A DNA stretch of 64,000 nucleotides, taken from Blasia pusilla. Taxonomy: Eukaryota. Positions 21,201 to 64,000 of the stretch are shown here, piece by piece; within the stretch, counting starts at the first letter, position 1, and each line of letters begins with the position of its first letter. The translations under genes were made by a program, and so were the position numbers. Below the pieces are notes generated by a model. The model did no database searches. It was not told the origin of the DNA and saw only the letters and a list, made by a program, of their open reading frames with translations. The DNA is taken from contig CM114271.1 of NCBI GenBank assembly GCA_050084515.1, positions 46,066,001-46,130,000 on the forward strand, in the 5' to 3' direction.

Positions 21201-24200
21201 CTTCTAATTTAGAAAGTGAGGTCCTTCCAAAAAGTTCAATGGAGTAGAGTACTAATTTAAAACATTCCAATTTGGGTAGATGGGCATGCAACCCCCAAGA
21301 GAATCCAAAGGTTGCGGGGGGATTTTAATGGAATGGGACAAAACATTTGTTTACTTTTCTAATTTCCAAGGATCCTTAAAGGATATGCGTTTCTATGTTG
21401 AGAATACGCCATCCCATACAGCCTTTATAGCATCTTTAATGTTTTTATCACAATTATATTAGGGCTAAATTGGCCTCAAAACCATAATTTCAAAATAAAG
21501 AAATACTATACAAACCAAGTATCCTACCCCATATATTCTTCCTTATCCGGACGAGATTGAACTGGGACCCTAATTATTGTTTCTCACGATCGTACAAGAT
21601 GAATGATGAATCGATCATTCCCTTCTTCTAAATAGGAGTTGTTAAGTAGATTAGGCCAGCAGTAAACGGCGTCGCGAGGCACTAAGTTAAGAACTTAGCC
21701 GGAGGCGCGAGATTACGCACTCCATCTGAACCCCTAATTCTGTCATCCCACGAGCCCAATCACCACAACAACTACGGCGGATCCCGAGACACCCGCCTAT
21801 TTGGCGCCTCTGGGGATCGAGGCCGGGAAGCACGCTGCCGCCGCCCAGGATAAGCGGAGCCGCCTATTTGGCGCCAGAGTGGGTGGAACCCCGATTCTAA
21901 GATGACGATTCAGAAAACCATCCAACTGCTCCTCACTTTTCGGTTCGCTGTTCGGTTGACTTTCTTGGAAGGAAGCGTTCGGTTTCCGTCTCGTGCGCTA
22001 CGGAAGTCGACTCCTCTTTTATCTCCTCTTACTTCTTCCGGAGGTGCGAGTTGCTTTCGAATTCAAATTTTAGTTACCCTCCGGTTGTAATTTTTTTCAT
22101 CGGGTAAGGTGGTAAGATATGGGATACATCATAAAATTTTCATATTAAAATATGCTAAAGATAAATTAATGCATTTAATTTCGTTTGGAAATAATTTCTT
22201 TTCTATTCATTTGAAAATGAGAAGTTATCGGTTTTCTAGTGCCTATCTTTCAGTTGATAAAAGAAAATCATTCATTTGATAAAATTTTCCCCAAAATAGA
22301 GATGAAATTTTGCTGCTCCCAAAAAAATTTGAAAATTAAATATAATATGAAATTTTTATTATTATCTTGAAAAATATTTTTTGTGCTGGTATTATGCTTT
22401 TTCATTTTTTCCCAAAATTTGAATCAAGTTTGCCTCGAAACTAAACTTGAATCTGAATTTTTGTAGCAATTTGTTTGGCATGGACCTCTTAAAAATTATT
22501 TTTAAATTTTCAAATGAGAAAATATAATAAAATAAAGGGAGAATTTGGAACTTTGGAATATTTTATTGGGAAATTTTTATATAATTACTCTTACTAATTT
22601 TTTAATTACAAAATAAATCTAAATTTTTTACTTGGCCTTCATTATACTTTCCTGCTAAATATAGGGTAAAATTCATAAAAATTCCACATTTCACTCATTA
22701 GTTGGTCACCAAGATGAGCTAATGCCCTTAATGGTATGATTAGTTCCCCCCTCCCCCCTCCTTTTTGCTCTAAGGATTTCTTAGAACATACATCCCAAAA
22801 GTCACGCCTTTGGTCTACACATGGTAAAGGAAAATAAATCTATCCAATTGATTGTTGCATCCTATTGCTATTTTAATATAAATCTAAGGATTTGAACGAT
22901 CCTAGCAGTTAGGGTAGTTAGGTTAGTGATACTAGTTTGAACGGTATGGAATAATTTAGTCTAATTTTTTTAAGTTATTATTATTATCATCATCATCATT
23001 TTTATTAAGGCCCTTGAAGTACTCATACTTTTTCTCTCTCCATTTAATCTATCCATGTCCTCCAATCTAGTGTAATCATTAATTTCTCCACCCCCCCTCC
23101 TTTCCCCTCTCCCTTTTTCTCAAAGGACAACAAATTGGTTATAGAATATCCTCTTGGATTTTCAAATTCCTCTTCTTTTGATACATGGCCCCTTCAACCA
23201 ATAGGATCGCTCAAATTTGATTTAAGGGATAGTTTAAGTCCTTGGTCACATGTTTATCATAATGACCCATGCAATCCACGATCATCAATTTTGTCTAAAA
23301 GTTTGATGAGAATAAGAGGAATAGTTTTGAAAAGCGGTTGTGATGAATTGGATGAAGATTTGGAAGAAGCGGTTGGTGTTAGAGAATAAACGAAATTAAT
23401 TGTGGTCGTCTAAAAGAGACCTATGATGGCATTCATAAAAAATTTTAGGAAGTTGTTAATGGGATGATGAAAGCTATTTTCTTAGTCACATTCTGAACTT
23501 TTTTTTAATAGTTTTGGAGGTTTTTAGGATGAATTGGTGTGCTAATGTGGTAACCATGGAAGCATCATGGAATGTAGAAGGGTCTTTTGTCACTCACATT
23601 ACAAATTTTAGTTGTATTTTCATTTATTTATGTTGTTTTAGCTCATTCTCATCATGCTTCTACCCACAAAACCTCACACATTGTGTTTTTTTTTTTAAAA
23701 ATCTTAGGTGCTTTGTCATATCTTAGTTAGCCAAAAAGTAGAGCTCTACCGCATTGACGACATAGAGAGTCAACTTCATTTTCAGGTGTAACTTCATCAT
23801 GAGATGTCAGATGAGGTTGGCGACATGTTCATTGGATTGGGAACATCGTTTCTAAAAAATCCACTATCTTAGTCTTTGTCAGCCAGATGCCTCGTTGACC
23901 GTGTCGTGCGTATACACATCCCTACATAATCCACATCATTGGTCATATCTACACACCACACAACACCGATCTTCCCCAACCTACGGGTAGATCCACACAT
24001 AAATGAAACATACTCACGCATATATATCGGGACCCCACAACAAAATCAAGTGTAGTAAAAATGGCTCACCCGGCCTAAAACTCCACTCATGAATCTAGAT
24101 CGGCATATCAAACTACATCCACCCTCTACTATGAGGGAATCTGGACGCTAGCACCGTAACTCCTACACACCCACGCACGCCTATGCAAGAGAGGCGCTCA

Positions 24201-25339
24201 TAAGGCTCAACATGAGAAAGATGGTTTGAGAAGCCATCCTCCTCACTCTTATACCATTGGGAAGAGCCAAAAGGCTCTTCCCCCAAAAATAGCCCTACCA
24301 ACGGTAACCTGCGTGCACAAGTTACCGGATGAGCGTTGACTCGGTCAACGGGTCACCTGACGGACTAAAACCAAAATAGGGAAATCGCCATAAACGATGT
24401 TCCCTACACAAGAGACCTGCCTCAAACCTCATCCGACATCCCGGAACGAAGTTACACCCAAACAGCCTGTTGACTCTCTATGTCGTCGACGCGATAGAAC
24501 TCTACCTATGTCGAAATAAGATATGACAGTTGTCGTGCACATACACATCACTACACAACCCATATTGTTGGTCACATCTATACACCACAAAAAACCGATA
24601 TTCCCCAACATACAAGTAGATCCACACATAAATGAAACATACTCACGCATATACACTGGGATCTCACAACCTCCCCTCTAGTTGGCAGTTGGGTCCCCCC
24701 AACTTCAGATAGCACACACATATGTATCTGACAAGATCTACTATCTTATATACATCTAGCACCATCGGTGCCCTCATCCCCGTAACATTGCCACACTACA
24801 GCAACCCGCTGTGGTGATCCCTCTGAAGAGATCTAACACTCTCGTACCGTGCTCCAAACATACGCATAGCTCCACGTCTGCCTCATGAGCTCATATGCAC
24901 TCCACGCATCTCAACGTTCGTCCCCAACAACAATAAAGAAGCTCTGTACCATGGGAAGAGACACCCATCCTTGCATGTCTCTCCGTGGGACTATCCGCTA
25001 TGGGAATGTCCTCCGCATGTGTGCTCCTCTCCCCAAACCCTCATGATCATCGAACACCACATGTGAATGTTGCCAATGTGGTCACCGTATCCTCACCTGG
25101 TCAACCACCACTACTCTCTACAAACTGCACCGGTAGATGGCTCACTCATCCATCACCTGATCGCCACCCTGGCCGATAAGAAACCATCTCCTCCCAAAAA
25201 TCCAGAATGAACCCAAGGGGATACAACACTGTACTCCCTACCAACACATCATACAACTCTGCCAGTATCGTAATCTCCCGAGTGCGCACCATTGCACTAT
25301 CTGACTTGTGTTGTGGCTGGAGTTTAACCACCAACTCTT

Positions 25340-26740
25340 TTCAAGTCATGTACTACGTGGGTGATACGCCCCCAATAGAGTTATGTATCTGAAAGGGACA
25401 ACACACTCTGCCTTCTCGGGATATACCGTCAAGAGAGAGAGGTTAGACATTTTCATGGCTTCCTCCATGTTGTTCTGTTGTGAGCGTTTGCCCACTGCTT
25501 TCGTTATGGTATCCACGAATGCTTTCTCATCTTGCTCCCATAGTTCAGGCCCTGCTGGGAGCTTGGAAGCTTGCACAATCTCTTGAACCTTTTTTGTCCA
25601 AGATTTGGCCTGCTTTACGGGTCTTCTTTGGATCCAGGTTTTTCCCATCACCTCTTTAGGATAGCCATGGGAGTCCATTGTCCAGCTGCCTTCGCCATTT
25701 TAACTTGGCAATGTCATGTCTATCCTCCAAGGGTTCCATACCTAGTTCTGATCTCACAGCAACTCGGGTTGTTCGTGATGAGGTTGACATCATACCCCAA
25801 AACACCTTCAACTGTACAACTTCAAGCCTATCCCTTTGTTTGGTGTTGGCATCCCACATTGCTGCCTCGTATTCCAATGAGGGACGAATGGTATGCAAAA
25901 TGACAGAGTGCTTTACTTCTGATGTGATATCCCGGCAGTGTAGGAATCTGGACAGACCGTTCACCTTCTTGTGGCCTTTCTCAGTAGTCTTCTTAATGTA
26001 TGCATCCCACATGCAATCTTTTGAGAATTCTATGCCCAGATAGGTGTATGTAGCCACACGAGGGATCTCTTGTTCGCCCTAGTACCACTGTTGGTCTTGG
26101 TCCTCCTCCTTGCTATTGAAAATCATCACACCGCACTTTAGTACATTTGCCTCCATGCCCCACATGTCACGCCAAATTTTGGTCAGGGAGATCATCTCTT
26201 GGAGTTTCTCTCATGTTTCCTCGAGGCCACCAAAGTCATCAGCAAACATGAGGGCAACAAAAGAGTTGTTGCCCACCCGTATGCCTAGTCCACTATCCTC
26301 CATTTCTTCCAATAGGGAATTCACAAAAATGTTGAAGAGAATGGGGGGAGAGCGGGCATCCTCGAGCCACTCCTTGCTTGATGTCGAATGTCCCACTCTT
26401 TCGGCCATTCACCATAACTCTACTTCTTGTGTTCTGGTACATCTTCTCCACCACCCTCCACATTTTCCCTCTCAGCCCCGCCTTCCACAAGCTATAAGAT
26501 AGCCCGTTACGCCATACAGTGTCGTATGCCTTCTTGAGGTCCAAGAAGAAGCAATAGGTGGGTTTCCCCTCTTTTTTTTACCCTGGATAATCTGACTAAA
26601 GGTGAAGATGTGATCCACGCATCCTCAGGCTTGCCGAAAGCCAGCCTGGCCTTCCTTGATGACACAATTCTCCTCCAGGTACACAGAGATCCTATTGTTG
26701 AGTATACGGCAGGGGAGCTTCCCGACACACTAATCCACAC
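25340..26740 (-). mobile_element. Non-LTR (LINE) retrotransposon ORF2 reverse transcriptase fragment, frameshifted, inserted in the protease of copy 4
   Basis: Translations include QAGFR, FLDLKKAYDTVWR, KQGVARGCPLSP/ILFNIFVN, LMFADDF and YTYLGIEF, which are LINE RT motifs. Confidence 0.9.
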
Positions 26741-27156
26741 CTACCAACCAGGGGAACAACATCGCAAGCTCACTACAGGTTCCAACTACAACAATGGGGT
26801 ACTCGATAGAGGACTCCAACTCATTTAGGAGACTGGTTCTCTGGGAAAGTAAATGCAAGTACAGCATTGCAACATCCTTCTTCTCAACAGTATCTCAATG
26901 CAAACTTGTTAGTGTACACAGCTCCATTTGACATGTTTCCTAAGAACACAACGGAGGTCCATGTCAACTTTAAGATATCTGAACTAAATTTCCAAGAGAG
27001 TGGGTAACACTAAAAAGGTCAAACAGACGATCCTGTGACATGGAATAACATCAAGAGTAATTTTTATATTTTTCATATGGTGATTATTTGCTAGGGAGCC
27101 TTGAAGATCAAATCACAAATTTGAGACTCCGCTGTTGCCTGCTTTGTTTGCCCCAC

Positions 27157-27903
27157 CTACATGAAAAGAGATTGCAACGTCTGCAAGAAACATTGCATGT
27201 TCCAATTGAAAAGGTAATGATGTTCATTATCAATGAGCCCCGAGTTGCAAAATCTACATAATGTGTCATCCCTTTTCTTTTGTGAGAATTTTCCTTTCTC
27301 AATCTCAAGGTCAGTAGAGCCACATTTGCATCTCGCTAATGTATGCCGTAGCTTAGTGGAAATGGGGGCAGAGATGTAAGAGGCTTGCTGCATGGATCTG
27401 CTATCTACTTTATTATCTACTTTATCTGATTGGGATCCCCAATAGACATTACTTACCAGTGCAGCAGCTTTGGGCAATGAATCAAGGCTACTGAATGTGT
27501 TGAACAATTTTGGTGCTACCAGCTTAGCAATATCAACATATGCTCTTGCTCTGTGAGCTATGAATTTTACGCAGGAGACCAAGGAATGACTAGAGGTTTC
27601 ATCCCCATCGTCACACAAGAGATGGTTTTCCCTACTCCATCTAGAGTCTTGCAAAGTAATGTGCAAGTTTGAGCCTTCAAGATCTTCGTATCCTCTCATA
27701 TCCACTGCACTCTTAGGGTATACCCTACTCTGACCATATGGAAGGTATATTGTTGGTATTGACAAGTCATCTTCATGATTGGATTCTATATGATTCAACT
27801 TAGCCACACCCACAACACCCTGGTAATCTGTTGCTTTCTCCTTGAAGTTCTCAATGCTATGGGTAGGGAGATAAAATCCAAGACCAAAATGGTACTCTGA
27901 CAT
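27157..27903 (-). mobile_element. Second LINE remnant: ORF2 C-terminal CCHC zinc-finger region with an unassigned upstream part
   Basis: LRHTLARCKCGSTDLEIEKGKF...LCRFCNSGLIDNEHHYLF matches the C-terminal motif of LINE ORF2. It lies upstream of the RT fragment on the same strand, so it is a separate piece. Confidence 0.65.
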
Positions 27904-28210
27904 AGAACAAGAATATTTGGGAGTGAGTGCTCAAGAAAGCTCATTTTCCACACAAGTTGTGATTGGGGATGATGGTTATAAGGTATAAACAACCTACCTT
28001 CACTACATTCAGTAGCCTTGATTAATTAATTGCCCAAAGCTGATGCACTTGTATGTAATGTTTATTGGGGATCCTAATCATGTAATCAACATATGTAGGA
28101 CAATAAGATGATTCCTATACTGTCAAGGCATCACATCACATGTAAACCGCCTTGTCATTCTTCTTCACTCTGTTGGAATATAAAAAAAGCAGTGGGGGAT
28201 GCCCCATTCA

Positions 28211-28216
<6 letters not shown>

Positions 28217-28302
<86 letters not shown>
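28217..28302. repeat. (CT)n microsatellite
   Basis: Perfect dinucleotide run. Confidence 0.98.
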
Positions 28303-28303
<1 letters not shown>

Positions 28304-31300
28304 GCCTGGTTGGGTTTAAACCCCAAAACTACAAGTCTCAGTAGGCCTGGTATGTTGGGACAACATGTTCTAAAGCACTGCTCTTGGGTAGCTTAACCCC
28401 ATAAACCCAATACCAAACACGTCGCCTTCCCTAACATCAAGGGTTACGCTCCTCGAATCAATTAGGACACGTTGCGGGTGGTACATCATACTTGTGGGAC
28501 TAACCAAGTGAAAAATTCATGCTCGCTTATCCAACAACATCATACCTTGTGTGATCACAACTGGCTTTATCGCTGGCCTAGTTGGCATATCTACCAACTT
28601 TGCCACTGCAGCATGCCATGACTCAGTGGGGGACATCCCAAGCGCATGCTCGAAGGGCAGGTCCACCACCTCCTCAAACGAGAGGCAACCACCTCTCCAC
28701 GCTCACACGACGTGGCGGCCTGCCCAAACACCTGCGTTGGTCCAACTCCCAACATCGCCAACTCCATAGCGGAAAACAACGGAGCATGGCTCATCCTAGT
28801 GGCCACCTCCAACAATGTGGTCTACACTAGCTCCACCTGAGTTGATATAGGAGTTGTCTCTCCAACTACTCGTGACGTTGACACACCTGTCCTACCTGTA
28901 AACACTATTGGTTGTCGAGGCACCATCAACGGTGTATGCAATGCCTCTTACAACGTGAATAACTAGGGAACCCTAGCCTATCGCCCATCGGTCCCCTCCT
29001 ATGGGCCGATCTCCACCCCACCTCTCAATGGCTCGGTCACTCTCGCATCACCCCGAGTCACCACCGCAACAGCCTCAACCTGAGCCGCATTGCACATAAA
29101 CCTTAGCCCCGTATCTTGATATGACGTGGAGGTTGGAGCCACACTAGTTACTCTCAGCTCTGTACCAATCACTCGCTGCATGATTGTTATGGCAGCAATC
29201 CTCTGCTCCAACCGATCAATGTAAGTGAGGAGCAATGCATCATGTGCACGTCCTCCATCTCCCCTGACTGGTGGTGGAACTTTACCGCCAAGATCATCAA
29301 CACCTCAATCTCCTCCAACTCTCTCACCCCACACCCTCTGTCTATCTCTAGACGTATCGCTTGGCGAAGATCAAAACACCTATCCCTAGTGTGACCATAT
29401 CGATGACAATGATCACACTGCAACTATGATAGGGCCATCCTAGGTGGCTCCTGAACATCCGGAGGCACCCTAGGGCCTCTACCATACTCTGGGCAGTCCC
29501 TCTGCCTATGTGGCCCACCACACGTCCAACAAGCCAACCTTGGCCCCTGCTCAGTAACATATGTCAGTACGGGTCATTGCCCTGCTCCTTGGGCCCACCG
29601 TCCCGCTCTCACGGTACTGGTGCACATCGTGGCATCTGTGGGGCCACTCCTACCCGTAGACTCATCAAATCCCGTGCAAATCTCGTGGTCACCACCTACT
29701 CCTCACTCATATTGAGCTCTACCTGCTCAGACAACATCAATGTGGGCTTCGCCATGTGAAGCAACATGGCATCGTGGACTCTCCTCCGTAGCTCATGGTC
29801 CAACACCCCGTACCAATACTGGATTGACTACGCCTCAGTCACTCCATAAGTAGTAATGAATAACAGCCAAGGTGGCTCGCCCCCCTACGCTCTAGGCCTC
29901 TCTCTTCCAGCTTACAATCCCATCCGCGGCTTCATACTCCCGTACGCGTCCGGCTTTGTACACCCCGGAAATTAGTACTCCCATCCGTATTTGTACAACA
30001 TGTCGTGTATATACGACCTAGCTCAAATTTTTGACCTAAAGCTTAAACGGCTACCTAGCCTCCCTTACTTGACAACCCCCCAAAGGCTGCAAGACCTAAA
30101 ATAACTTTCGCTTCTCTCCCAACACACTCACTCGCGACCACCCGCTACCCCACGTCACGCTACACGCTACACTCTGCCGTTGTCCCCCGTCAATCCACAT
30201 CGGCGAAATCTGTGAAAAATAGACGGCACTTCCGCGCACAGCCTCTCGAACATAAAAACAACAAAAAAACATGACACACATGTCTGTAGGGGCTCCCCAT
30301 TGCGGAAGCTCGCTTGCTACCTGCAAACAACGAATTCCACCCGGCCCTTGACATCTTTCTCATGTAAAATCAAGAGTAGTAAAAATGGCTCACCCAGCCT
30401 AAAACTCCACTCATGAATCTACATTGGTATATCAAACCACATCCACCCTTTGCTATGAGGGAATCCGGACGCTAGAACCCTAACTCTCATACACCCGCAC
30501 ACGTTTATGCAAGAGAGGCGCTCCTAAGGCTCAACATGAGAAAGATGGCTTGGGAGAGCCATCCTCCTCACTCTTATGCACATGGGAAGAGCCAAAAGGC
30601 TCTTCCCCAAAAAATAACCCTACCAATGATAACCTGTGTGCACAAGTTACAGGGTGACCATTGACTCGGTCAATGGGTCACTTGACGGACTAAAACCATA
30701 ATAGGGAAATCGCCATAAACAATGTTCCCTACACATCAGACCTACCTCGAACCTCATCCGACATCCCGGGACGAAGTTACACCCAAACAACCCACTCACT
30801 ATCTAAGCCGTCAACGCGATAGAATTCTACCTACGTCGAAATAAGATGTGACAACCAAGTCAATAGTCACCTGATAACCTATGCATGTAGGTTACCATTT
30901 GGAGGCTATTTTTGGGGAAGAGCTATAAGAGAGGGACAACTAGCTTTCCCAAGCCATCTTCCTTATGTTGGACCTAAGGAGTAACCCTCTTATTTTGAGT
31001 GTAGTAGGAACAAGGGTGTTGGCATCCGGATTCCCTCACAGTGGAGGGTGGATATATGCGGCTCAATATGTCAATGTGCATTCGAGAGTGGAGTTGGTTG
31101 TGTGTGCCATTTTTTCTGATTTTGTTGTGTGGTCTCCATGTATATGCATGAGTATATTCCGTTTATAAGTAGATTAGCCCGTGTGTTGTGAGATGTGTGT
31201 TGTATGGTGTGTAGATGTGACCAACAATGTATATGTGGACGATAGGTTACACTCTGAAAAATTGGGGCGTGTTGATCGTCATCCAAAGATGGTCCCTAAA

Positions 31301-31759
31301 CCTTGGTTTTTAATCGTTCTCAACTAGCTAAATGTATCTATGCATCTTTTGCTACTTACAATATTGAGAAAAAATTTCCATGGGAAGCCGCTATTGATGT
31401 GAGTGATAACTACCCCCTAACCATGTTTGTATTGTGTCATCATAGCAAAACCCTCCCTCTTTTTATTCTCTTACTGAATTTTTTTTTCATTCTTTACCTA
31501 CTGCAAGTGAGGTGGGGGGAGAAAGGGGGACAAATGGATCTAGTGGGGAATGGGTGAAGGCCTTCCCTTATCCATGGGTTAGGGACTGGTCCGACTAACC
31601 ATGCCAACATCCCTACAACAGGTCTCATGGTTGGATTTGGGATAGTTCTTATCCCAACATGCATGGGGTTGGGATGTCAAGAGGTTCATATTGATTGATG
31701 ATGGTAGATGATATGTTGAATATAGATGATATTGTGAAGATTGAGGATAAATGAACACG

Positions 31760-33788
<2,029 letters not shown>

Positions 33789-34549
33789 GCTAATAAGTGA
33801 TAAATTCCAATAAGAGAGGTGACAAGAGATAGGAAATAAAATTTCAATAAAATAAGGAAGTAAGATCAAACTTACTCCATACCTCTCTAGTAGTACAAAG
33901 ATTCTAACTTTGTGATCTTCCCTTGCATCTAAACATCCACAGGTTAATCCAAGAGTGGATGACATTGGGTTCGACGAGTATGAGGGTCACTTCCTAAAAC
34001 TAGAGGTGGAGAGCGGGATTCAAACCTTTTCATATAAAGGAATTACTCTCTTAACTATGTCAAAACCTCATATACCTTAGGGATGGAAAATTTATCTTTT
34101 GTTTTCTTGTTTATCCACAACCCATGATTAAATTGATTTTCAATCACAAGTAAAAAAATAACAAGATCTAAAGACGCAGACAATCATTTAGGAATATTGG
34201 AAATAAATAGTCTAGTGGCCCTACATTGATGTTGATGGGCCTACTTTGAAGCGAGAACAATAAATAAAGTACAATAGTATGGGTTTATAAGAATAGTAAT
34301 ATTTTATATTGCAATGTAATGGTAAGTTGTGTGGTTTGAACTTGGTGAACGCGGTCCTTGCTATTTCTAATAAAATACAAATTCGTTGAAAAGGCCAAAT
34401 ACATTACTTTGTAAGTGTTGAATGAGCCTAATATTCAAATCATGACTAAATAGCTTCATTGTTTATGATGAGCTTATGTCTACATCAAGTGGGAACTATT
34501 TTGATCTTTACTTTCTTATGGTCCACTCATGCTCACAATCATGTATAAA

Positions 34550-52339: not shown

Positions 52340-55300
52340 ATAAGTAGGTCTTTGTGTGTAGAGGTATCTATATGTGAGGCATAAAAAGACGGTAAGATGA
52401 GTCTCACTTCGAACAATGATCCACTTGAGGAAGTATTTCCTCATATCTTACCAATGTCAACAACGCAAGATTACGAGATTTCCTTGTCCAACGACATGTT
52501 GTTGTTGGGGGACGTAGGGCCTAGATCGGATGGGTACCAGTCATTTATTCATTGTAAGTTTTCTATGTTAGGGTTGGTCAAGTGCTAAATAGGGTGGGGG
52601 GGGGGGGGGGGGGGGAGGAATTTGGCGTATGTGGGGGCTTGGGAGACCCTAGGTTTGAATTCTTTAGGGATATGGTGGAGATCTTATGACATCCGCAAGA
52701 GCACTAGACTAATTCTCCACACACATTCTAGAGAATGTCCTAATTTTGGGTGAATCTTAGTTTAGGGTGATGATGAAAGTACATCATGTTCGTGCATGAT
52801 TGGACCAATAGTATTGTTGGATGCAATGAGTGTGGGATTGCGCCCGCATTTTTGCTCCTCTAGTGGACAAACTTGATGCCACATAAGGTGTTCAGGAGAG
52901 TCTATGCAATAGTGGAGCAAAACTCTTAAATGTTTGTGAATTCGATTTTGGATCATGGATGTCGATCATAAGCAATGAAGTAAGATGGTCAACCCCCCTC
53001 GAGTGTGATCAATATAGTTGGTATGCGACAAGCAACACTCTCCACACTGGTGAATTTCCCTACCTCTAATGCTTACAAGGAGGGTGGTTATGGTTTGATT
53101 TGGGATGATAAAGTGCAATGGATGGTGGAGCCCAATGTTGATGAGTGAGAGAGCATGATGAAAATTTTCCATAAGAGTGACAATAATGTTGTTATTGAGA
53201 AAAGAGTCTCGACCCCATATCCTCGGTTAAGCTGTGGATCGAAATTGCAATATATATATTATCACTCTAGGAGTGGCTAGCAACTTCAAATGCAATTGAG
53301 GCATGTTACCTCTCAGGAACTTGTGAGCCCTATGCCTAACAAGATGGAAAAGACAATAGCTAGGGGCAAGGCAAGAGGAGATCCATGGATCAAAGGTAAT
53401 CAAGAGAGACACCCTTGAACTTCTTGGGATATGATGTAGGTACGCTGAGACATGAGAATTATGACACTTGGTACCATGCAAGATTTTAATCACTTAAGTA
53501 TATCGAGAGGAGAGACATCTAAGTTGGTTGCACGAGAAGAGTAGAGTACTAGTGATAATGAAGGGGTTGCATAATAACTATTAACCCTATGTTGGAGAAA
53601 ACTATTGCATTCTTGATGGAAATATGGGAGCCAAAGTTTGGGCCTAAGTTGACATAAGGAGAGCGACACTGGGTACATTGGTCCATCAGGAGTCAACCAA
53701 GGATATGTTGAAGCAACCAAGGATCCACATTGAGTTGTCAAGTGACATATTGATCTTCCGATAGTACATGAAATGAGATGGACATGGCTATGATTTAGAG
53801 CAAGAGTAAGAGTTTAGTTGAGGTAGACGTAGTGGAGATGTTGTACGGAGAGTATACCTAGGCTATTGTCATGCCCATAACGAAGGATGTGCTATACAAT
53901 TGATGTATAGGTAGATGTGTGGAGACTATCAACCTATCAATTGAAAGACAAAATCTAACTTGTATACGATGTCCATGCTAGAGGAGGTCTTTGATGCCAT
54001 TGGGTATGTAAGGGTCTTTAGATCATTAGATCTATAGTTGGATACCTTCAGGTGCCTACAAGGGTGGAGGATAGACGGAAGATGATATTTGGTCACAGGA
54101 AGGATTGATTATACCAATGGCGATTCTTATCATTTTGATTAAATAACACCTCGGTAGAGTTTCAGAGAGTCATGGTGGAAATCTTACAAGATTTCGATTT
54201 TTCCAAATGTTATATTGATATTATTGTAGACTTTATTACCATGGGTGAGAAGCATGAGCGACACCTTGCGGAGATGTTCTAACAATTATACTTACATAAG
54301 CTAAAGCGATATCTAAGCAATTGCAATTTCTTCTATGCCTAGATTGAGTACTTGGTTCATACAATAAAATAATGTGAACTTGATATTCAACATACAAAGC
54401 TAAGGGCTATCTCACGTATTCTGCGCCCTACAAATGTGAGTCAAGTTTGTGCATTCATGGGATTAGAAAATTTCTATTGATGATATGTTAGGGTGAATTC
54501 AACACGATTGTGAAGCTTTTGACCTTATTGTAAAATATGGACCATAAATGGTAGTGGGAGGATGATCATAATAGAGCATTTCAATTCCTTAAGGATTGAT
54601 GAATGTCAAAATACACACGGCTTGGAGTATATTGGAACTTAGAGCGGTGCTCATCAAACATGAGGATAGAGAGTTTGTATTGGATTGCACTAGCCGCTCA
54701 AAGAATCTTGTAGAGGAAAAGTACAACTCGTATGAGGGAGAACTCTTGGAGGAAATATGAGCGGTTGTGCATTTCAAGAGTTACTTTTTTGTTAACCCCT
54801 TTACCCTCATCATTTATCATCAACCATTGAAATGGTCGATGAAGTCTGACAAGCTTAGAGGGAAGCTTCAAAGGTGGGCATTATTGTTACATGAGTATGA
54901 TTTCCATGTGGTACATCAACCTAGAAGACTCAATCAAGAGGTGGATGGTTTTAGTTGTAACTCATGCCAGTGTTAGCTATTGGAGCTCATTGTATGGGCA
55001 TGGTAGGAATATGAGGAGATGGTTCTTGGTTGGCATACATCTACCTATTTAGTTTTATTGGCCATGGAGAACCATAAGACCTTGATTGTAATGACAAGGT
55101 CGAATGGAGAGTTCGAGGTTGGTGAGGAGGTGACATGTGGCCTAGATACCCGAGAGGATGGATTAGTCTTAGAGTACCTACATATTGGTAGCATATATGG
55201 CATGCACAATGGGTTCCAAAGAGCGGAATTGGATCCTCTAGCAAGCTAGATGGTTTAAGTGGGAGGGGGTTTATGTTTTGTGAGTTTGGGAGGATTGTAG

Positions 55301-55600
55301 AGTACGAGTGGTGCCTTATCCATTATTTAGAGCTTGATTGGTTTAGTATACCTACAAGGAATTGGGGCATTTTGGAGTGAGGTGGACATATAGGTTGCTC
55401 AAAGTTCATTATTAATGAATTACTTTTGTTTAATGCTCTCACTATTGATCATGGATTTATGCCACCGAAGGAGTTTGGATTTTATGGCCTTTATCATTGA
55501 TGGAGTAGCATGATCAATATGTACTAATAATTGTCGAGGACTTCTCGATGTGGATTGAGTTGGTTGCATTTCCCAACAAGGCGTGTGAGTGAGTAGCATA
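52340..55600 (+). mobile_element. Decayed DNMT-RT-RNaseH-integrase pol of the same lineage (copy 3)
   Basis: RYLYV (motif II) ~52365, FLC*GWSS (IV) ~52560, HILENV (VI) ~52725, L*WTNLMPH (VIII) ~52860, GLIWDDKVQWMVEPNVDE (IX) ~53095, ILG*AVDRNC (X) ~53220. RT CGDYQPIN and YIDI 53920-54225. RNase H 54700-54960. Integrase start ~55350-55580. Confidence 0.85.
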
Positions 55601-58600
55601 TGCACTCTTGGACTAAGTGTCAAGTCAATATGACACAATAGTAAAAGTGCATTGAAAAATCATTTAATGTTCATAATGAGGGTAAAAATTTGCTATAGTA
55701 CATGAGAGTCTGAACAAATGATGTAGGATTGATGCTCAATATTAGCACTTGATGAGCGTAGGAGTACGTTAGCCTTTCCTCTTCCAAACCCCATTTATAT
55801 TGATATATTTGAGGAAATGCATATGGGAAGAAAGATGAGGATTGATAGAATGGTTCTTACTGACGTATCAATTAGATCATTCGTCACTTGAAACACTTGG
55901 TCTCGTGCATGGAAAAGGGTATATACATCTTTCATATGCTTGATGGTGAGGTATTCCCATCTTGTGTGTGTTGACACGTGACATCCAAACCATGTATTAA
56001 GACATGAATCATGAAAGGATAGTCCAAGAAGTCTAGAATGCACACCATGAAAAATAGGGATGCATACTTACAAAAGAGGAAGTTTTGACTCATTCGGCCT
56101 TGATCACAAACAATGCAAGGAATCAATATTTTCTTCATTTTTGATAAAAATCATCCCACTATTCCAAAAATCCCTTGGCCAACCACTTAAGTGAGTGTTG
56201 CATGTGATTCTTCATTTGTTGCATCAGAGTTGAAGGGAATTTTGATTTACAAGGAAAAAACCTAAGTTCTTGTGATGGGTCATGTCAAATAAAGGTTGAT
56301 GGAGAAAAGATAAAGAAGTTTGGAGATCAAAAAAATTGGCGAGAGCAATGGGTCAAACGTTTCATACTCATCTGAAATTTGAAATCGAACATAAGATATA
56401 GTATCACAAAAGTAAGAATGTGGATTATTAAGATTACTTGGAAATAAAATATCCAAGACACAAAGCTCGACTTTTTGAATCGCACAGATAAGAAATATTT
56501 CGTAAGTAAGATTGAGAAGTTTATTTCAATTTGTGAGTAACAAAATCCTCAAAGCCAATATTCCCACTTAAGGATAAAAAATAAACACAAGTTTGTTGGA
56601 ATAACATTGTAATACGATCATTAGAAAATCTTTGATGCCTAAAGATATATAACCATGCAAGATCTTACAAATAAAATACTATCCTTTTACTAGTATGAAA
56701 AGAAGAGTCACAATATACAACCCCTAGTTAAAGGTATCAAAACTAGTGTGAAGATGTTATAATGGGGACGTGGAAGAGCACAACAAGGTATAGATCAATC
56801 TCCTCCATTATATAAAAGGTTGATATATGTTGCAATTTTAGATTTTGATATAGATAGAATAAGGAGAGTCGTCTTCTAATATTGTGGAAGGTGCCTATCT
56901 ATGGGAGCAGACACTTAGAAGAATAGAAGAAGAAGTGATTTCTTGTCCATGAGAAACCTACTTGGCTTATGGAACCTTCCACATACGTGATCTTGACATC
57001 GCATCCAACAAACACCTTCACATTTAGATTTCAAACATTTATATTTGGAGTTCCCACATATATGAAAGGCACAAGGTGCAATCTCTCGAACATGGACCAT
57101 CCACGTTCTATATTGCTGTATGGTCGAGACCGCCCTCCATTGTCCAAGGGGAGAGTTGATCAAGGGACCTGTCATAACTTTTTAGGATAGATTGGAGAGA
57201 TCTGGTAGAGTGACTTTGCGAGTAGAGGAGGACAAGCTCAAGAGGTCTAGGATGACCTGTTGAGGTCATGGGAAACTTGAGAGAGCAAGTTTTCCCTTTG
57301 TTTCGGCTTCATTTGGAACCATATAGACAAACTTACTATTTTGGGTAAGTTTCTATGTTTGGTATAGTTAACTTTCCACTTTTGGAAGTGGCCCTTGACC
57401 CACTACAACAGGTCAAGAGCCAAGGAGGTGACCTGCGAGTGTAGGTTACGGAGGAGAGAGCTTGGGAGAGGGAAGGGGGTACACCTCAAGGAGAGAGAGC
57501 TTGAGAGCTCATTCTCTCTTTGTTGAACTTCTTGGCATGAGGCGGAAGAGCTATGGTCTTGCTTGCCTTGTGAGTGTAATCCAAGCCTCTCATTAGGAGA
57601 GTGGTTTTGGGTTGACATTGAGAGAGACATGTGAGAGTGCACACATTTGAGAGTAATGGTGTTGAGAGAAATTGGATCTACTTGATTTACAAAGAGAGAA
57701 TGAGTGAGTGAGAGAGCTTCATGGGGGAGCTCGATGGCCACTCGCTGGTTTTTCAGGTTGGGGATCGTATACCGCGTTCAGCGGTTCATGGGAGTGCTAA
57801 CCGGAGCAAGAGACGCTTAATTTTGATGTTTCTTTTGCCGATTTTTCGTGTGGAAGAGTGGAGCACGGAAGCGCTGCCCAAATTTTTATAGGGATTGAGT
57901 ATGGGGGTGGGTTGCCCCATGCCGGTGCTCTCAAGAGCACCGTGTAGCTTGCTAATTTGTATTTTCACAAGTTTTAGATTTTTGTTAGAAGGAATCAGCG
58001 TGGAAGCGCTGTCAAATTTTGCATAGGAGAAAGAGACGTTGGGTTGCACAACAGTCCCCCTCAGTTTTTGGTGGAAAAGAAAATGGAAAAAGGGTCATAG
58101 ATCGGAAAGTGGTGTACGCTGCTGAAGAAACAATGCACAATTTGGAGATTGGAGCACGGAGTTATGATCATTTTTGTTGGGCTGCCATATCCACCGTTCC
58201 AAGGTGTGAGTGAAATTTCGAAATTTTTGGGTAGAAATTCTCTCTTGAGAGGTAGAAAAAAATTCAATTTACTTGGTGGATAGTTCAATTGAATTCAGCT
58301 ATTTGGAGGTAGGGTGAGTAGATCCCATTTTAGGGGGGTGTTGACCCTCAATCTTAGGAGGGATTTGTGGTAAGGTATTCAATTTGCAGACTTGTCAAGA
58401 GGGGGTTGTCAAGTAAGGAAAGATAGTGGAGATCCAATTTTCCCGGGGGTTCTTCTAAAATTAAATTAAATTATGGCGGGGGACAACAACTGTCCTACCA
58501 CGTCCTAGCTGACTATCTCGGAGACGCGCAAACCGGTTGTGCACTTGCTACCGCCGTTGTATGTTCTGTGGTCCGTTGACGCTTCAGGGCCGCTATCCGG

Positions 58601-61590
58601 TTGTCAGACCTCCTAATGTCGAAACAATATTGAGCCGTCGTGCAGCCGTGTGCAGCTCTGTCTGACCCTATGTTACTACCGCCCGTAGAGCCGGGCATTT
58701 GAATCTCTGTCTCAGACCGCCGCGACTGCCTGTGTTCGCAGCCGGCCGTTTGCATTTTTGGATTGATGGGGTGGTAGTGTTTTTTCCGCTTTGTTATGCC
58801 GTGATTTGTAGCCGTTCGAGGAAAATGGAGTATCGTGCCGTGACGCCCCTAGCCACAATGGGCCGTCGATTGCCACGCCGAGCCACTTGTGGCTGCACCA
58901 CACCGTCTTGATCGCCGAGCCGCACCATCACTGAAGAGCAGAGTGTGTATTGCTGTTGAGGAGGGTATGCGCTGAGAGCCGCACCCTATTATCGAGTGCC
59001 GTGCTGTTTGTAACCATTCGAGTCGCGAGTGGCGCACCGTACCGCTCGACCCGCACCGCACATCAAGGAGATTTGAGCATCGTCAGTACCAAAGGAGTAC
59101 GATTTGCTGCTTGGAGGAGTTGTCTTCACGACCGAGTTGGGGTCAAGGTTTTTTAGTTGCTGAGGCGTGACATCGACACTTATTGTTATGTTACCCATTC
59201 TGGTCTTTTGCCCTGCACGTGTTAGGGATTTTCGGGTATTGGGCAGTTATTTGGGATATTGGGTTTCGTGCTGATGTTGAGAGCATCATTGATGTATTGG
59301 TTAGGGGATATAGACCTGTGTTGGACATCGAGAATTGAGGGTGTGTCCTATCAATAAGATGATAGGACAGTAGACGATTTTCCGCACCACCCCGCTTGTT
59401 GCCGCACAATACACGTCTCAGTGAGAGAGTGTAGATTGAGTGCCGCATGTTGGATTGAGTGATTGAATGATTACTCGCGAGATTGGGAGTGATCGTATGA
59501 GAGGGGCACAAGAGTCATCATGGCGTTCTTTTGGGACTTTGAGAGGCGAGGTGGTGGATCTTAGAGTAGCTCTAGAGGGTTTACCCGGAGTGGTGCGAGG
59601 TTTTGAGAGTCTCCATGTGAGAAACCACCTCGATCTCCAGCTGTGTCGTCTTCAGACAAGGGGGAGAGTGTAGAGGAGTGTGCTAGTGATCCACCACACA
59701 CATTGAGTGGTCCTACCAGTTGGGTGTACGAGATGGATGACCGGGATAGAAGACCGCGTAGGTTTTCGAGTGCTATAGGCACTATAGATTTAGACCATTT
59801 CATTGCGGATTTTAGGAGTTGGTGTGACTCACAACAGGCTAGGAACTCAAGAGAGTTCAACCCATTTACAACATGGAATGGAATGTTCTAACATTTAGAG
59901 GGGGCATCCATGGACGATTACCATGAGTTCTCGTAGAGATATGCTCATGAGATTGAGGCCTGGAGACTCTACTATGACCCACACTATGTGTCATGGACTG
60001 ATCCGTTTCCAGATGAGGAGAAGGAGTAAGGAGAGGGTTCCTCCACCAGTGATGTTGTAGGAGGGATGACTCGCACTAGAGCAATTACATCGTCCAGTCG
60101 AGTTCGTCCTAGTTTCAACCCCCTTGGTTGAGTTCTTCACTGAGTTGAGGGCGAGTTACGAGGGGGTACGGACGGAGAGGTTACGGAGCATCCATGACTT
60201 CCAGAGGCGTCCGGGTGAGAGTTTGCGTGAGGCCTACACTCGCTTGCGCCGGTTGATTAACGTCACTCAGGGGGTGACAGAGGCTCAAGCTCTCCAGTCA
60301 TGGTACACGATGCTGGACAAGACCCTACGAACACGGGAACGGGAAGGGGTGCTTCTTATGAACACCTCCCCTACGTTGAGAGATGTTTTTAGGACTGCCG
60401 AGAACATTGAGTGCAACATGGCGGAGGGGACCGTAGCCACCATGGGTTGTGGGCAAGAGCAGTCACAATTGTGTGCACCACCAATGCAACAACATGGATT
60501 CCGAGATAGGTCTGTGGCACCACGAGCCCAGGGAGGATACCAGGAGGCCGTGCCATAGAGACCTGTGCCTTCATATGTAGCTCAACAACAGCCGCCTACT
60601 ATTACTTGTTGGTCATGTTGTGGAGCCCATCATCAACGCGATTGCATTCGTCAGGGTCATGGACGCGTGCCTCAGCATGGAGGAGGAGATGGTGTTGCAC
60701 TAGGAGGTTATTAGTGTGACTATTGTCAGAGGTACGATCATAAATGCGCCAAGTGTTTCAGCTTGTACCCTGAGTTACGTTCGGACTGAGGGCTAGAGAG
60801 GGCACCAAAGCAAATTTCCAGTCGGGGTGGGCCTAGAGGTCGTGCACCAGGTGGTCTCGTTGGGGGATGAGGAGTTGGATTTGCCCGAGGGGATGGTGGA
60901 GTTGCCCATGGAGGAGGTAGAGTCCCACCACCTAGACCCGTCAAGGGAGATGCCGGGCGTGAGGTTGGGATGGCTGCTAAGATCTTGCAGCTACAACAAC
61001 AGATTGCCCCTATGGCATTGAGGTTACCCGATGCCGGATCTGTGGCATCGACATCTTATGGAGCCGTTAGACGTATGGAGGATCTTGGTTGGATGTGCGA
61101 GGTTGCCCAGATGGAGGCCACCGCAATTGTTACCGTGGAGCAATCGTAGAGTTGGATCTAGAGCGAGGGGAAGCCATAAAACAAACCAGGCTTCCTCAAT
61201 CCTTCACGTTGTCCGAGGCAATGAGGACCCCATCGATGGGTCCTGATCAGAGTTCTCAGAGACTTGGTGATGTGTTGGTGTGCAGGCACATAGGGCGATG
61301 GAAGAAGCAAGTGCGATGACTCCTATTCCTGATGCTCATGAGGAACATGTGTCGAGCACGTTGTTGGGGGCGGCCATCGTTGTGTCCCGCGCTCTTTTAT
61401 TTTTTGCTTCCGATGTTATGACGTTGGGAGGTACGCCCGCCGAGGTTTTCCGGCCGGCCGCTATGCTGTGTGAGCATGGAGTTGGAGTTCCTACATCATG
61501 TTCAGAGGTGATTGCAGAGGAGGTGATGGAGCTTGGAGCTTATGCTCAAGTCGTCCACGTCAGATTCATGGCAGGCTACGGCTAGTAGGA

Positions 61591-62199: not shown

Positions 62200-63152
62200 T
62201 AGGATCCCCAGGTACGGTTTGTAGAGCTGTATCCTAGATCTTGAGCCCCATTGACATAACTATGGGTGACCTAACAATCATAGCATAAATATCTACGATG
62301 GGATAAGCAAAGATGCCCGCTACACCCGCGATAGAGCGTGCCATGGCTTCGCTTGGTGTTGTGTTGCTGGAAAACGGGGGAGAGGTCTTCCACTTGGTGA
62401 GTCCACGAGGTAGGGGTTTTAGTCCGCAACGCGTCTTGTTGGATTAAGGAACGCAACCCCTGATGTTGGGGAAAGCGGTTTCAGAGGATTGGGCTTGACG
62501 AGAGCCAATATGGAGCGTTGTCCATCTTGGATACATACATCCTTGGATGGAGCGAGTACCACACAATATATCACATGAGAGGAGGTCATGGTGAGGATTC
62601 GGCTAGGACATGCTACAGATGAGTCAGTGGTACAAGCCAAGGCGATAGTGACTCATGCAGAGTCCTACGACGTCTTTGTTGGTGGAGCAGTGTTTGTACC
62701 CGATGGGGTTTTCATTGGATTACTGGGATGAGGCAGCGTCCTATAGACCAGTATGGCAGTCCGGTGATGGACGTCTTTGTTCATTACCAGTTTGATTCAC
62801 ATGTGCTGTGATCGAGCAACGGCCAGGAGAGCTGACGACCTTAGCAGCATTTAGCAGCGCCATCACTTGGCCTAGTGATTCGATTGAGGGACATGTTCAT
62901 GCAGAGGATACTCCCATTCTTGACATTTCTATGGAGAGGAGTGTCATGGTCGCTACATCATTCCATGGAGGAGAGGTGCCGCTTTGGGGTCCGATTGAGG
63001 AGCTTCAACGCTTAGCCACTGAGCATGTGCAGACCGCGTGGAGCGAGACGTTTGCACGAGAGCGTGACGGGTCAGAGGAACCCGAGGTAGCCGAGAGTGC
63101 TATGATGACGCCCTTGGATACCACACCCATTATGTGGTGCGTTCCAGAGGAG

Positions 63153-64000
63153 GATATTCGTGTGCTTGATCTCTTTGGCGGGATTAGCACTAGTGTAGCT
63201 ACTGTTTTGCAGGCTGGAGTACGCGTGCAACAATACATATATGTGGAGATTGATGATGTTGCAAGGCGCGCTGCACTTCACCATGTGGCATTTTTTTTTC
63301 CCGACTTTTTGTTTGCGTCCACTTTCCAAGGATACCAAAGTTCCCTACCAAGGGATATTGCATTGTTGGGGGCGTAGGACTTGGAGCGGGTAGAGACCGT
63401 AGACTTGGTCATTGCTCGTTGGCCGTGTCAGGGCCAATCGAGTGTTGGACAAGGTAGTAGGTTAGCTGACACTTGGTCTAGGTTATTTTGGGAAATGATG
63501 CGGATTTTACGACACTTGCAGGAGCATTGGTCCCGTTCTCCAACATATATTATGGAGAATGTGCCGATCTTGGGAGATTCAAGGTCACGGGTGGTGACGA
63601 GTGCACATCAGGTGCATGCATGGATCAACTCAGCAATATTTTTGGATGTGGCAAGTGTAGATTCTAGAGCACACCGCTCGCGTCTTTGGTGGACCAACTT
63701 GGTGCCACACGAGGTATTGCGGAGGGCATATCCGCGGGTGGAGCGCCCCTCCTAGTTGTTGGTGGATTCCATATTAGATCCCGTCCGTTGATCACAGGCA
63801 GTGAGGCACCATGATCGATCTTTGTTGACTGTGGTCAATAGGATTGGCATGCCACGGGCAAACTTCCCCATGTTGTGAGTTTTCCCGCTTCCTATACATT
63901 CAAGGAGGTTGCGTTTGGCTTGGTTTGGGATTACCAGGTAGAGCAATTGGTGGAGCCCAATGCCGATGAGCAAGAGCAAGTGATGGGATTCCCCACAGAA
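63153..64000 (+). pseudogene. C5 DNA cytosine methyltransferase domain (DNMT3-like) inside the retrotransposon pol
   Basis: Ordered motifs: I (DIRVLDLFGGI), II (YIYVEID), IV (DLVIARWPCQ, Cys codon 63426), VI (YIMENV 63555), VIII (RAHRSRLWWTNL), IX (EPNADEQEQVMGFP at the window end). In-frame stops at 63375, 63753 and 63789 and a frameshift near 63880. Confidence 0.93.

Follow-up and report, generated by a model that had tools for sequence, protein, structure and literature searches.

Split direct repeats on a Ty3/gypsy-type retroelement of Blasia pusilla and its possible integration from circular or end-joined cDNA

The 64,000-nt window analysed here, a single stretch of contig CM114271.1 of Blasia pusilla, contains at positions 23902-30853 a retroelement with split direct repeats, one repeat (A) standing alone at the 5' end and the order B-A-B at the 3' end, which is linked by gag and protease homology to a Ty3/gypsy-type lineage with a DDE integrase. 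The best reading of its borders, target-site duplication (TSD) and reverse-transcription signals is integration from a circular or end-joined complementary DNA (cDNA), a reading that is drawn from sequence and that we hold to be somewhat probable. All coordinates refer to the window, and the sense of the element is the minus strand; repeats were located with a repeat finder and blastn, and borders were read directly.

Repeat architecture and insertion site

The element and its borders comprise the following features.

30853-30366, minus strand: A1, 5'-terminal repeat of 488 bp, starting TGTCACATC (repeat search, blastn)
30365-24671, minus strand: internal region, between A1 and B1
24679-24671, minus strand: polypurine tract AGAGGGGAG, read directly and abutting B1
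24670-24531, minus strand: B1, internal B copy of 140 bp, starting GTTGTG immediately 3' of the polypurine tract
24530-24529, minus strand: 2-nt spacer AC, preceded by the CGACA that ends B1 and followed by the TGTCA that starts A2
24528-24042, minus strand: A2, 487-bp repeat, starting TGTCATATC and ending CTTGATTTT
24041-23902, minus strand: B2, 3'-terminal repeat of 140 bp, ending CGCACGACA
23898-23901: TSD copy 1, ACCG (plus strand), where the halves of H overlap when aligned to A2-B2
30854-30857: TSD copy 2, ACCA, from the same alignment of the H halves to A2-B2
23714-23901, plus strand: left half of H, an older solo A-B repeat (blastn and alignment)
30854 to about 31250, plus strand: right half of H, with A and B contiguous; its 3' end at about 31250 was judged by eye

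The order on the minus strand is A1, primer-binding site (PBS), internal region, polypurine tract (PPT), B1, AC, A2 and B2, with A1 and A2 88.5% identical over 488 nt and B1 and B2 85% identical over 140 nt (blastn). Direct reading gave GATTTT/ACATGAG at the border of A1 and the internal region, AGAGGGGAG/GTTGTG at the border of the internal region and B1, CGACA-AC-TGTCA between B1 and A2, and GATTTT/GTTGTG between A2 and B2; the outer termini of the element are TGTCA...CGACA. A first-pass annotation of the window had described this A1...B1-AC-A2-B2 layout with these junctions, and the repeat search, blastn and direct reading confirmed it. Its further claim, that the outer ends TGTCA and CGACA recur abutted at B1/A2, is seen directly, and the GATTTT/GTTGTG joint that it placed in a solo repeat near 31120 is present in H as TGATTTT/GTTGTG near 31117-31124. 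An ordinary pair of long terminal repeats (LTRs) is absent, the 5' end consisting of A alone and the 3' end of B-AC-A-B. Split direct repeats (A1...B1A2B2), a trait of the DIRS order, are present here and also in the metagenome locus L007 described below, as are, in this element, two traits of Ty3/gypsy elements, TG...CA ends with a TSD of 4-6 bp and a PBS right after the 5' repeat with a PPT right before the 3' repeat.

The element lies within H, which is 66-77% identical to A and B and is oriented opposite to it. Since the two halves of H overlap by exactly 4 nt on A2-B2, ACCG/ACCA, which had been proposed as the TSD, is a genuine duplication of 4 bp in which one position has since changed. 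The entire A...B-A-B unit entered H as one piece, and the element is one old insertion whose repeats have diverged by 11-15%. A 4-bp TSD was found at all four insertions with both borders readable: the 23902-30853 element (ACCG/ACCA, three of four positions identical), H itself (GCTT/GGTT, three of four, the end of H being judged by eye), the solo A-B repeat at 32436-33070 (CACC/CACC, four of four) and the metagenome locus L005 (ATTA/ATTA, four of four). Insertion free of a TSD, a trait of the DIRS order, is accordingly not what these four show.

Reverse-transcription signals

Three short segments of the element are relevant to priming.

30365-30352, minus strand: self-priming PBS ACATGAGAAAGATG, immediately 3' of A1, a perfect complement of A positions 307-320
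30547-30534, minus strand: complement of the PBS in A1, with CATAAG 31 nt upstream (starting at 30578)
24223-24210, minus strand: complement of the PBS in A2, with TATAAG upstream (starting at 24253)

The first-pass annotation had placed a PBS next to A1 and a PPT next to B1; both do abut the repeats, the PBS being of the self-priming type and not a tRNA site. The complementarity covers 14 of 14 nt from the first base after A1, for which the position-anchored chance is about 2e-6, and the complement is preceded, 30-31 nt upstream, by TATAAG in A2 and by CATAAG in A1. A further degenerate copy of the same superfamily in the window (copy 1, with A at 57170-57688) shows the same arrangement with a different sequence, positions 57689-57704 being complementary to 57508-57523 over 16 of 16 nt. 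As the pairing was retained despite the changed sequence, the two families show covariation. Minimum-energy folds pair the 5' end of the RNA with the PBS in both (z -4.4 for the element and -3.5 for copy 1). The PBS therefore looks like a Tf1-type self-priming site, with the putative transcript start placed from the TATA-like box. A PPT right before B is also found in the metagenome loci L007, L009 and L005, and the relatives carry AGGGGGGCG at the PPT position before their B; in L004 the alignment upstream of B is not conserved.

In the standard strand-transfer scheme the PBS and the PPT define the LTR ends of the cDNA. With the PBS after A1 and the PPT before B1, the cDNA is predicted to be B-AC-A - internal - B-AC-A, and its LTR to be B-AC-A. 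At the A2/B2 joint, here and in L007, the base that precedes the PBS adjoins the one that follows the PPT, and we infer that this joint represents a U5-to-U3 end joint, from the last base of U5 to the first base of U3. Because the insertions are bounded at TGTCA...GACA, inside the B-AC-A LTR, the provirus would be a circular permutation of the cDNA.

The integrase of the lineage

Relatives were studied in 11 metagenome loci (L001-L011, of which L007, L008 and L010 are a single locus in three assemblies) and in three further degenerate window copies (1, 3 and 4) of the same superfamily as the 23902-30853 element. Pfam searches covered 59 minus-strand open reading frame (ORF) pieces of the element (at least 30 aa, stop to stop), 106 ORFs of the window (at least 85 aa), 105 ORFs of the window copies, and the loci L001, L003-L007 and L009, including 88 ORFs from L005, L007 and L009.

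The ORF at 25149-25340 has 49 relatives at E <=0.1 among 65 candidates, with 50-73% identity and a weakest value of 2.6e-6, all originating from JGI/IMG. The longer ones read as a gag with two CCHC knuckles, an aspartic protease (VLLDSGA...YDVLVG...LDFWEE) and a C5 DNA methyltransferase; Pfam matched DNA_methylase (PF00145) with 42 bits against a cut-off of 22 and zf-CCHC at 1e-05, with Asp_protease_2 and gag-asp_proteas both under the cut-off. The methyltransferase is present in window copies 1, 3 and 4 and in 10 of the 11 metagenome loci, L011 aligning only to the part upstream of this domain. The fuller relatives go on with RVT_1, RT_RNaseH, Integrase_H2C2, rve and then PHD (Pfam), rve scoring 1.6e-12 in L003 and 8.5e-13 in L009, both over the cut-off; the reverse transcriptase (RT), RNase H and integrase domains of L005 and L007 were found by tblastn. 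The corresponding parts of the window copies, all located by tblastn, are as follows.

Copy 1, plus strand: gag 59763-60780; protease-methyltransferase 62253-63997, running off the window
Copy 3, minus strand: methyltransferase 37909-37456; RT-RNase H 37261-36239; integrase 35595-35042
Copy 4, plus strand: methyltransferase 52864-53190; RT-RNase H 53619-55382; integrase piece 55488-55649

The integrases of copy 3 and L009 share 49% identity (E 9e-43), and Pfam also matched Integrase_H2C2 and RT_RNaseH in copy 3. Phage_integrase (PF00589) was found in none of the 59 element pieces, 106 window ORFs and 105 window-copy ORFs, nor among the scanned ORFs of L001, L003-L007 and L009; rve is present among the 88 ORFs of L005, L007 and L009. 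A tyrosine recombinase in intact copies, which the first-pass annotation had named beforehand as an outcome that would refute its reading, did not turn up in the relatives, and rve with Integrase_H2C2 was found instead. The lineage is Ty3/gypsy-type with a DDE integrase, and its full members, as predicted from domain matches, encode gag, aspartic protease, C5 DNA methyltransferase, RT, RNase H, rve integrase and PHD. In the 23902-30853 copy itself RT, gypsy-type RNase H and rve are missing, and it is connected to the bearers of these domains through gag-protease homology. The designation "DDE-integrase element" given to it in the first-pass annotation is thus right for the lineage, which encodes rve and Integrase_H2C2, and wrong for this copy, in which Pfam found no integrase among the 59 ORF pieces.

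Following the integrase core, a PHD finger (PF00628, 1.5e-10) is located in L009 (6482-7126), L005 (14689-15321) and the window (31996-32457), a chromatin-reader fusion that stands alongside the methyltransferase in this lineage. Profile scans of viral contigs with the integrase and protease-methyltransferase alignments gave no relatives, and a DNA pattern from the end of A had 0 matches in metagenome contigs. For window copies 1, 3 and 4 no terminal repeats were detectable within the window.

Distribution of the layout in reads and relatives

The window holds a single full copy of the family of the 23902-30853 element. Whole-genome shotgun (WGS) reads from a run with the same species label (about 2 Gb sampled), as well as RNA reads, were aligned to the window at 80% likeness. 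WGS depth over the border of A1 and the internal region at 30365 was 965, with 481 of these reads having one extra base, and in 197 reads the end of A runs into a start of B; among the WGS read joints listed there was no internal/A or B/internal joint. The depth ratio of A, internal region and B is about 2.3 : 1 : 1.5, the figure for B being rough since it derives from mixed bins. The depth of 400-700 on the element, against about 0 on its unique flanks, indicates a high-copy family. The flanks themselves (23400-23670 and 31259-31500) have essentially zero depth in the sampled reads, from which it follows that the genome is very large or that the locus differs in the sequenced individual.

Among the relatives, the A-X-B-A-B form (X standing for the internal part) is found in L007/L008/L010, which has A1, PPT, B1 and A2/B2 and is a distant relative with 33% amino acid identity. 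L005, in which both ends are readable, has the A-X-B form, and so do L009 and L004 as far as their 3' ends show. The ends of L003 and L009 form a perfect 7-nt inverted repeat, TGTCATG...CATGACA, the arms of which would abut within the LTR. Ordinary identical LTR pairs, the other outcome that the first-pass annotation had said would count against it, were found in 0 of 7 different insertions of relatives in which an end could be read.

Two further arrangements were observed in these loci. In L007 (12943-16177, and identically in L008 and L010) a block spanning RT residue 54 through PHD residue 150 follows B2, and the element ahead of it misses exactly RT residue 53 to PHD residue 166, so that two neighbouring blocks are swapped in the same way in three assemblies. 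In addition, a repeat of about 817 bp, U, occurs in L005 (11014-11833) and L003 (3188-4003), starting CAACCCCAC and ending GCGCGTCA. It interrupts the L005 methyltransferase, flanked by a duplicated TTTCCTA (about 7 bp), and is a different, unrelated mobile element and not an A-B repeat of the lineage.

A model for integration from joined cDNA ends

DDE enzymes of IS3, IS30 and IS911 act on circular molecules in which the two ends abut with a short spacer of a few base pairs. These elements differ from the present lineage in having no reverse transcription, and the analogy is one of mechanism only and not of membership. In the model that we favour, transcription would start inside A, about 30 nt past the TATA-like box, and the first 14 nt of the RNA would fold back onto the PBS after A1 for self-priming of the Tf1 type. 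Plus-strand synthesis would begin at the polypurine tract before B1, and reverse transcription would yield B-AC-A - internal - B-AC-A. The ends of this cDNA would be joined, either as a two-LTR circle or as an end-joined multimer, and at one GACA-AC-TGTC junction of abutted ends the integrase would cut both strands after CA. Cutting at the 2-bp spacer would leave 2-nt 5' overhangs, resembling processed retroviral ends, and insertion would take place with a 4-bp stagger, the AC being lost at the cut junction and retained at the other. A-X-B-A-B copies alone would keep the terminal redundancy for another round. A-X-B copies could not replicate under the model, and they and the A-B forms would be dead on arrival or products of deletion. 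Possible sources of A-X-B are single-LTR circles, linear cDNA that was cut internally and B x B deletion, and solo A-B would stem from an A x A deletion. As to whether the whole lineage has its attachment (att) sites inside the LTR, has a circular permutation of the cDNA as its sole replication-competent provirus and uses the joined-end molecule as an obligatory integration substrate, as IS3 and IS30 use their circles, we would put the chances at about even.

Several observations weigh against integration from joined ends. The copy under study is without an integrase, and the link to rve passes through relatives with 33-57% amino acid identity. The circle, the joined cDNA and the activity of the integrase are all deduced from sequence, and the read joints listed leave the B1-AC-A2 junction unsupported as a family-wide feature. 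The spacer between B and A is 2 nt here versus about 17-19 nt in L007, a locus that in addition shows no TSD and has its RT-to-PHD block displaced behind B2, and L005, L009 and L004 end in B without A2-B2. RNA coverage of the element (depth of at most 10) is too low to place the start of transcription. A self-priming complement of at least 11 nt was found in neither L005 nor L003, and L007 has no complement of at least 9 nt adjoining A1.

Alternative explanations

An alternative that keeps the same DDE integrase, and that we regard as rather unlikely, does without a circle: either att sites inside the LTRs of linear or multimeric cDNA would be used, or the A/B joint would be made by template switching of the reverse transcriptase or by recombination between cDNAs. 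The split repeats would in that case restore the ends, a role that has been suggested for them in DIRS elements. Internal cutting of a linear B-A-X-B-A molecule would give A-X-B directly; L005, with two readable ends and a perfect TSD, has this form, as do L009 and L004 at their 3' ends. A closed circle is not required by any of the data. However, linear B-A-X-B-A has no B past its right-hand A, so that A2/B2 still needs end joining, and in two families this joint falls exactly at the ends defined by the PBS and PPT. The A-X-B copies, moreover, would have no terminal redundancy for the next round.

A tyrosine-recombinase retrotransposon of the Ngaro/PAT/TOC type, with the recombinase lost in this copy, we consider highly improbable. 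Split direct repeats are the hallmark of Ngaro, PAT and TOC elements, and the layout together with solo A-B repeats is a textbook Ngaro pattern (PMC8547959, excerpt; PMC4157794); Ngaro, PAT and TOC1 share with the present element the order A1-[ORFs]-B1A2B2, scattered solo A-B copies and an internal B/A that is the junction of the two ends, and certain protist and algal genomes contain many such elements (PMC12477816). They encode, however, a tyrosine recombinase and are described as leaving no TSD, whereas the protein relatives of the present element have rve and Integrase_H2C2 and no Phage_integrase, a finding that so far holds for the relatives and not yet for the exact family. Insertion of DIRS1, and by a recombinase, is described as leaving no duplication (PMC3266345), in contrast to the 4-bp TSD at four of four insertions, and the flanking 4 nt are missing from the internal B1/A2 junction. 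The element further differs from Ngaro, PAT and TOC1 in its TG...CA ends, its protease remnant and its PBS and PPT at the repeat borders. Given the TSDs and the lack of a tyrosine recombinase, membership in the DIRS order fails.

A one-off event (a rearranged ordinary LTR element, an element beside a solo LTR, or a LINE-style template jump joining two RNAs; LINE, long interspersed nuclear element) would fit the single full copy in the window and the LINE reverse-transcriptase fragments in its internal part, but can hardly be upheld, as the A/internal (depth 965) and A/B read joints are common in the family, the LINE part is nested and bypassed by 132 reads, a single TSD surrounds the whole unit, and the layout is shared by L007 and has been reported in Klebsormidium (PMC5890265, excerpt).

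Comparison with known systems

The split-repeat layout on a Gypsy element is already on record for Klebsormidium nitens, in which KnitGypsy-Dnmt3 (de Mendoza et al. 2018, Nat Commun 9:1341) is a Gypsy-type, DNMT-bearing element whose repeats, according to the legend of Fig. 4c, are DIRS-like (A-coding-B-A-B) and whose domains are typical of Gypsy (PMC5890265, excerpt). Compared by description only, it has in common with the lineage studied here a Gypsy-type Pol that encloses a C5 DNA methyltransferase, and split repeats. The methyltransferase is deleted in the 23902-30853 copy and present in its closest protein relatives. The fuller relatives differ from KnitGypsy-Dnmt3, as described in that excerpt, by a C-terminal PHD finger. 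The excerpted account contains no PBS/PPT analysis, TSDs or mechanism; what seems to be new here is the PBS/PPT logic, the TSDs, the covariation of the self-priming site and the putative att sites inside the LTR. In a full-text literature search PMC5890265 alone carried the name KnitGypsy-Dnmt3. No other Gypsy element with split direct repeats, an integrase and a PHD finger was found in the literature searched, which lies for the most part outside subscription journals.

Tf1 has ordinary identical LTRs, with att sites at the LTR ends. The present element resembles Tf1/sushi and Tcn1 in having no tRNA-type PBS and a putative transcript start that is complementary to the PBS right after U5, self-priming in these Ty3/gypsy elements being summarised in PMC6317226 (excerpt). 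It differs from Tf1 in its LTRs, and the likeness is one of PBS features, separate from phylogenetic placement.

In retroviruses the circle is a side product and not an obligatory substrate, and the two-LTR circle counts as a dead end. The integrases of foamy virus and HIV-1 have been reported to cleave LTR-LTR junctions (PMC1180852; PMC1905944, excerpt).

Coding content of the copy and nested LINE debris

The internal region of the element is subdivided as follows, all features being on the minus strand.

30351-28402: internal region, 5' part, with gag (two CCHC knuckles) and a protease active-site remnant
29863-28693: gag (tblastn with relatives)
29573-29190: the two CCHC knuckles of gag (zf-CCHC, E 0.016)
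28615-28403: N-terminal part of the protease (tblastn with relatives)
28459-28457: Asp codon of the protease active-site remnant VLIDSRS, for which the relatives have VLLDSGA
25428-28401: nested LINE debris of about 3 kb, with LINE protein matches, skipped by reads and foreign to the family
25427-24680: internal region, 3' part, with ORF 25149-25340 (YDVLVG...LDFWEE) as the C-terminal part of the aspartic protease
25427-25119: C-terminal part of the protease (tblastn with relatives)

The 5' part is covered by tblastn matches to residues 246-304, 496-596 and 624-694 of the relative P0221, and the C-terminal part of the protease is 47-49% identical to P0221 and P0201 (tblastn); Asp_protease_2 matches weakly on the corresponding part of P0221 and P0212. 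Among the 59 ORF pieces the sole non-marginal Pfam match was a LINE-type RVT_1 (1.6e-09), the marginal ones being the zinc knuckle and six other families (E >=0.02); rve, RNase H and Phage_integrase were not among the matches. Past the protease the element extends for only about 0.45 kb, and the methyltransferase, RT, RNase H and integrase of the relatives are missing. The copy is non-autonomous, with gag and protease only, and by read continuity so is much of the family. A homologue search with a 140-aa RT-thumb ORF gave 0 matches among 80 candidates, and a PDB sequence search with two protease ORFs gave nothing meaningful. In the ESM Atlas, retropepsin clusters ranked second and lower for the 64-aa ORF, with scores of at most 0.92 and low recognition, which can be taken as a lead only.

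The LINE RT remnant (26729 to about 25470) is 63% identical to Ectocarpus APE+RVT_1 proteins. On a profile of five such proteins this remnant maps to the RT, and the 257-aa ORF at 27160-27930 maps to the C-terminal zinc-finger region of the LINE; as the latter here precedes the RT, the debris must comprise two or more LINE fragments. As 132 WGS reads connect 25401 with 28402, with about 20 nt between, and bypass the LINE block of about 3 kb, the block is a nested insertion that is absent from other family members, and the protease halves mapped on both sides place it inside the protease. The RNA reads pile up on the LINE parts only, strong depth (100-300, run X14, versus at most 10 elsewhere) being confined to the fragments at 25428-28401, and the LINE family is apparently transcribed somewhere in the genome. 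A reading of the whole element as a LINE, with A as 5' and B as 3' untranslated region, was discarded because the LINE pieces are non-collinear and bypassed by reads and the gag-protease is retrovirus-like. The Ectocarpus-like RT also prompted a reading as a brown-alga Ngaro element, which was dropped on account of rve, the TSDs and the protease.

A (GA)n microsatellite is located at about 28200-28300 inside the LINE debris, and a (GT)n tract at 33640-33750 lies by element debris. The segment at about 29860-30174 (about 315 bp, in the gag leader region) is private to this copy, as an insertion or a replacement, read depth being about 3-6 across 29904-30174 versus 400-700 around it. The six largest breaks in the WGS read alignment were rejected as structural breaks, five of them being explained by indels in diverged copies and the sixth (29859) bordering the private segment.

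Other elements and genes in the window

Besides H, the window has a second solo A-B repeat (32436-33070, minus strand), which belongs to the family of copy 1. It interrupts the PHD/3' region of another element fragment on the plus strand, comprised of an integrase C-terminus (31710-31838), the PHD finger (31996-32457) and a 3' region (33183-33302). Elements of this superfamily insert into one another repeatedly. Elsewhere in the window, ORFs of at least 85 aa match GST_C, Glycos_transf_4/MraY and a ZIP transporter, which indicates that host genes are interspersed among the nested retroelements; ZIP-like ORFs at 33609-33986 (minus strand) occupy the expected place of the 3' end of copy 3.

Implications

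LTR elements and retroviruses are held to integrate from the ends of linear cDNA. If integration from joined ends is true, the lineage would break this rule, and the LTR-LTR circle junction, the presumed "dead end", would become a working att site; the lineage would then offer a natural system for testing cleavage of this junction by integrase. The same model would explain how a Gypsy-type element can resemble a DIRS element. LTR finders that expect two identical terminal repeats will mis-annotate the lineage, as will classifiers that equate split repeats with tyrosine recombinases. Finally, the cytosine methyltransferase and the PHD finger carried by the lineage bear on the interplay between retroelements and host chromatin.

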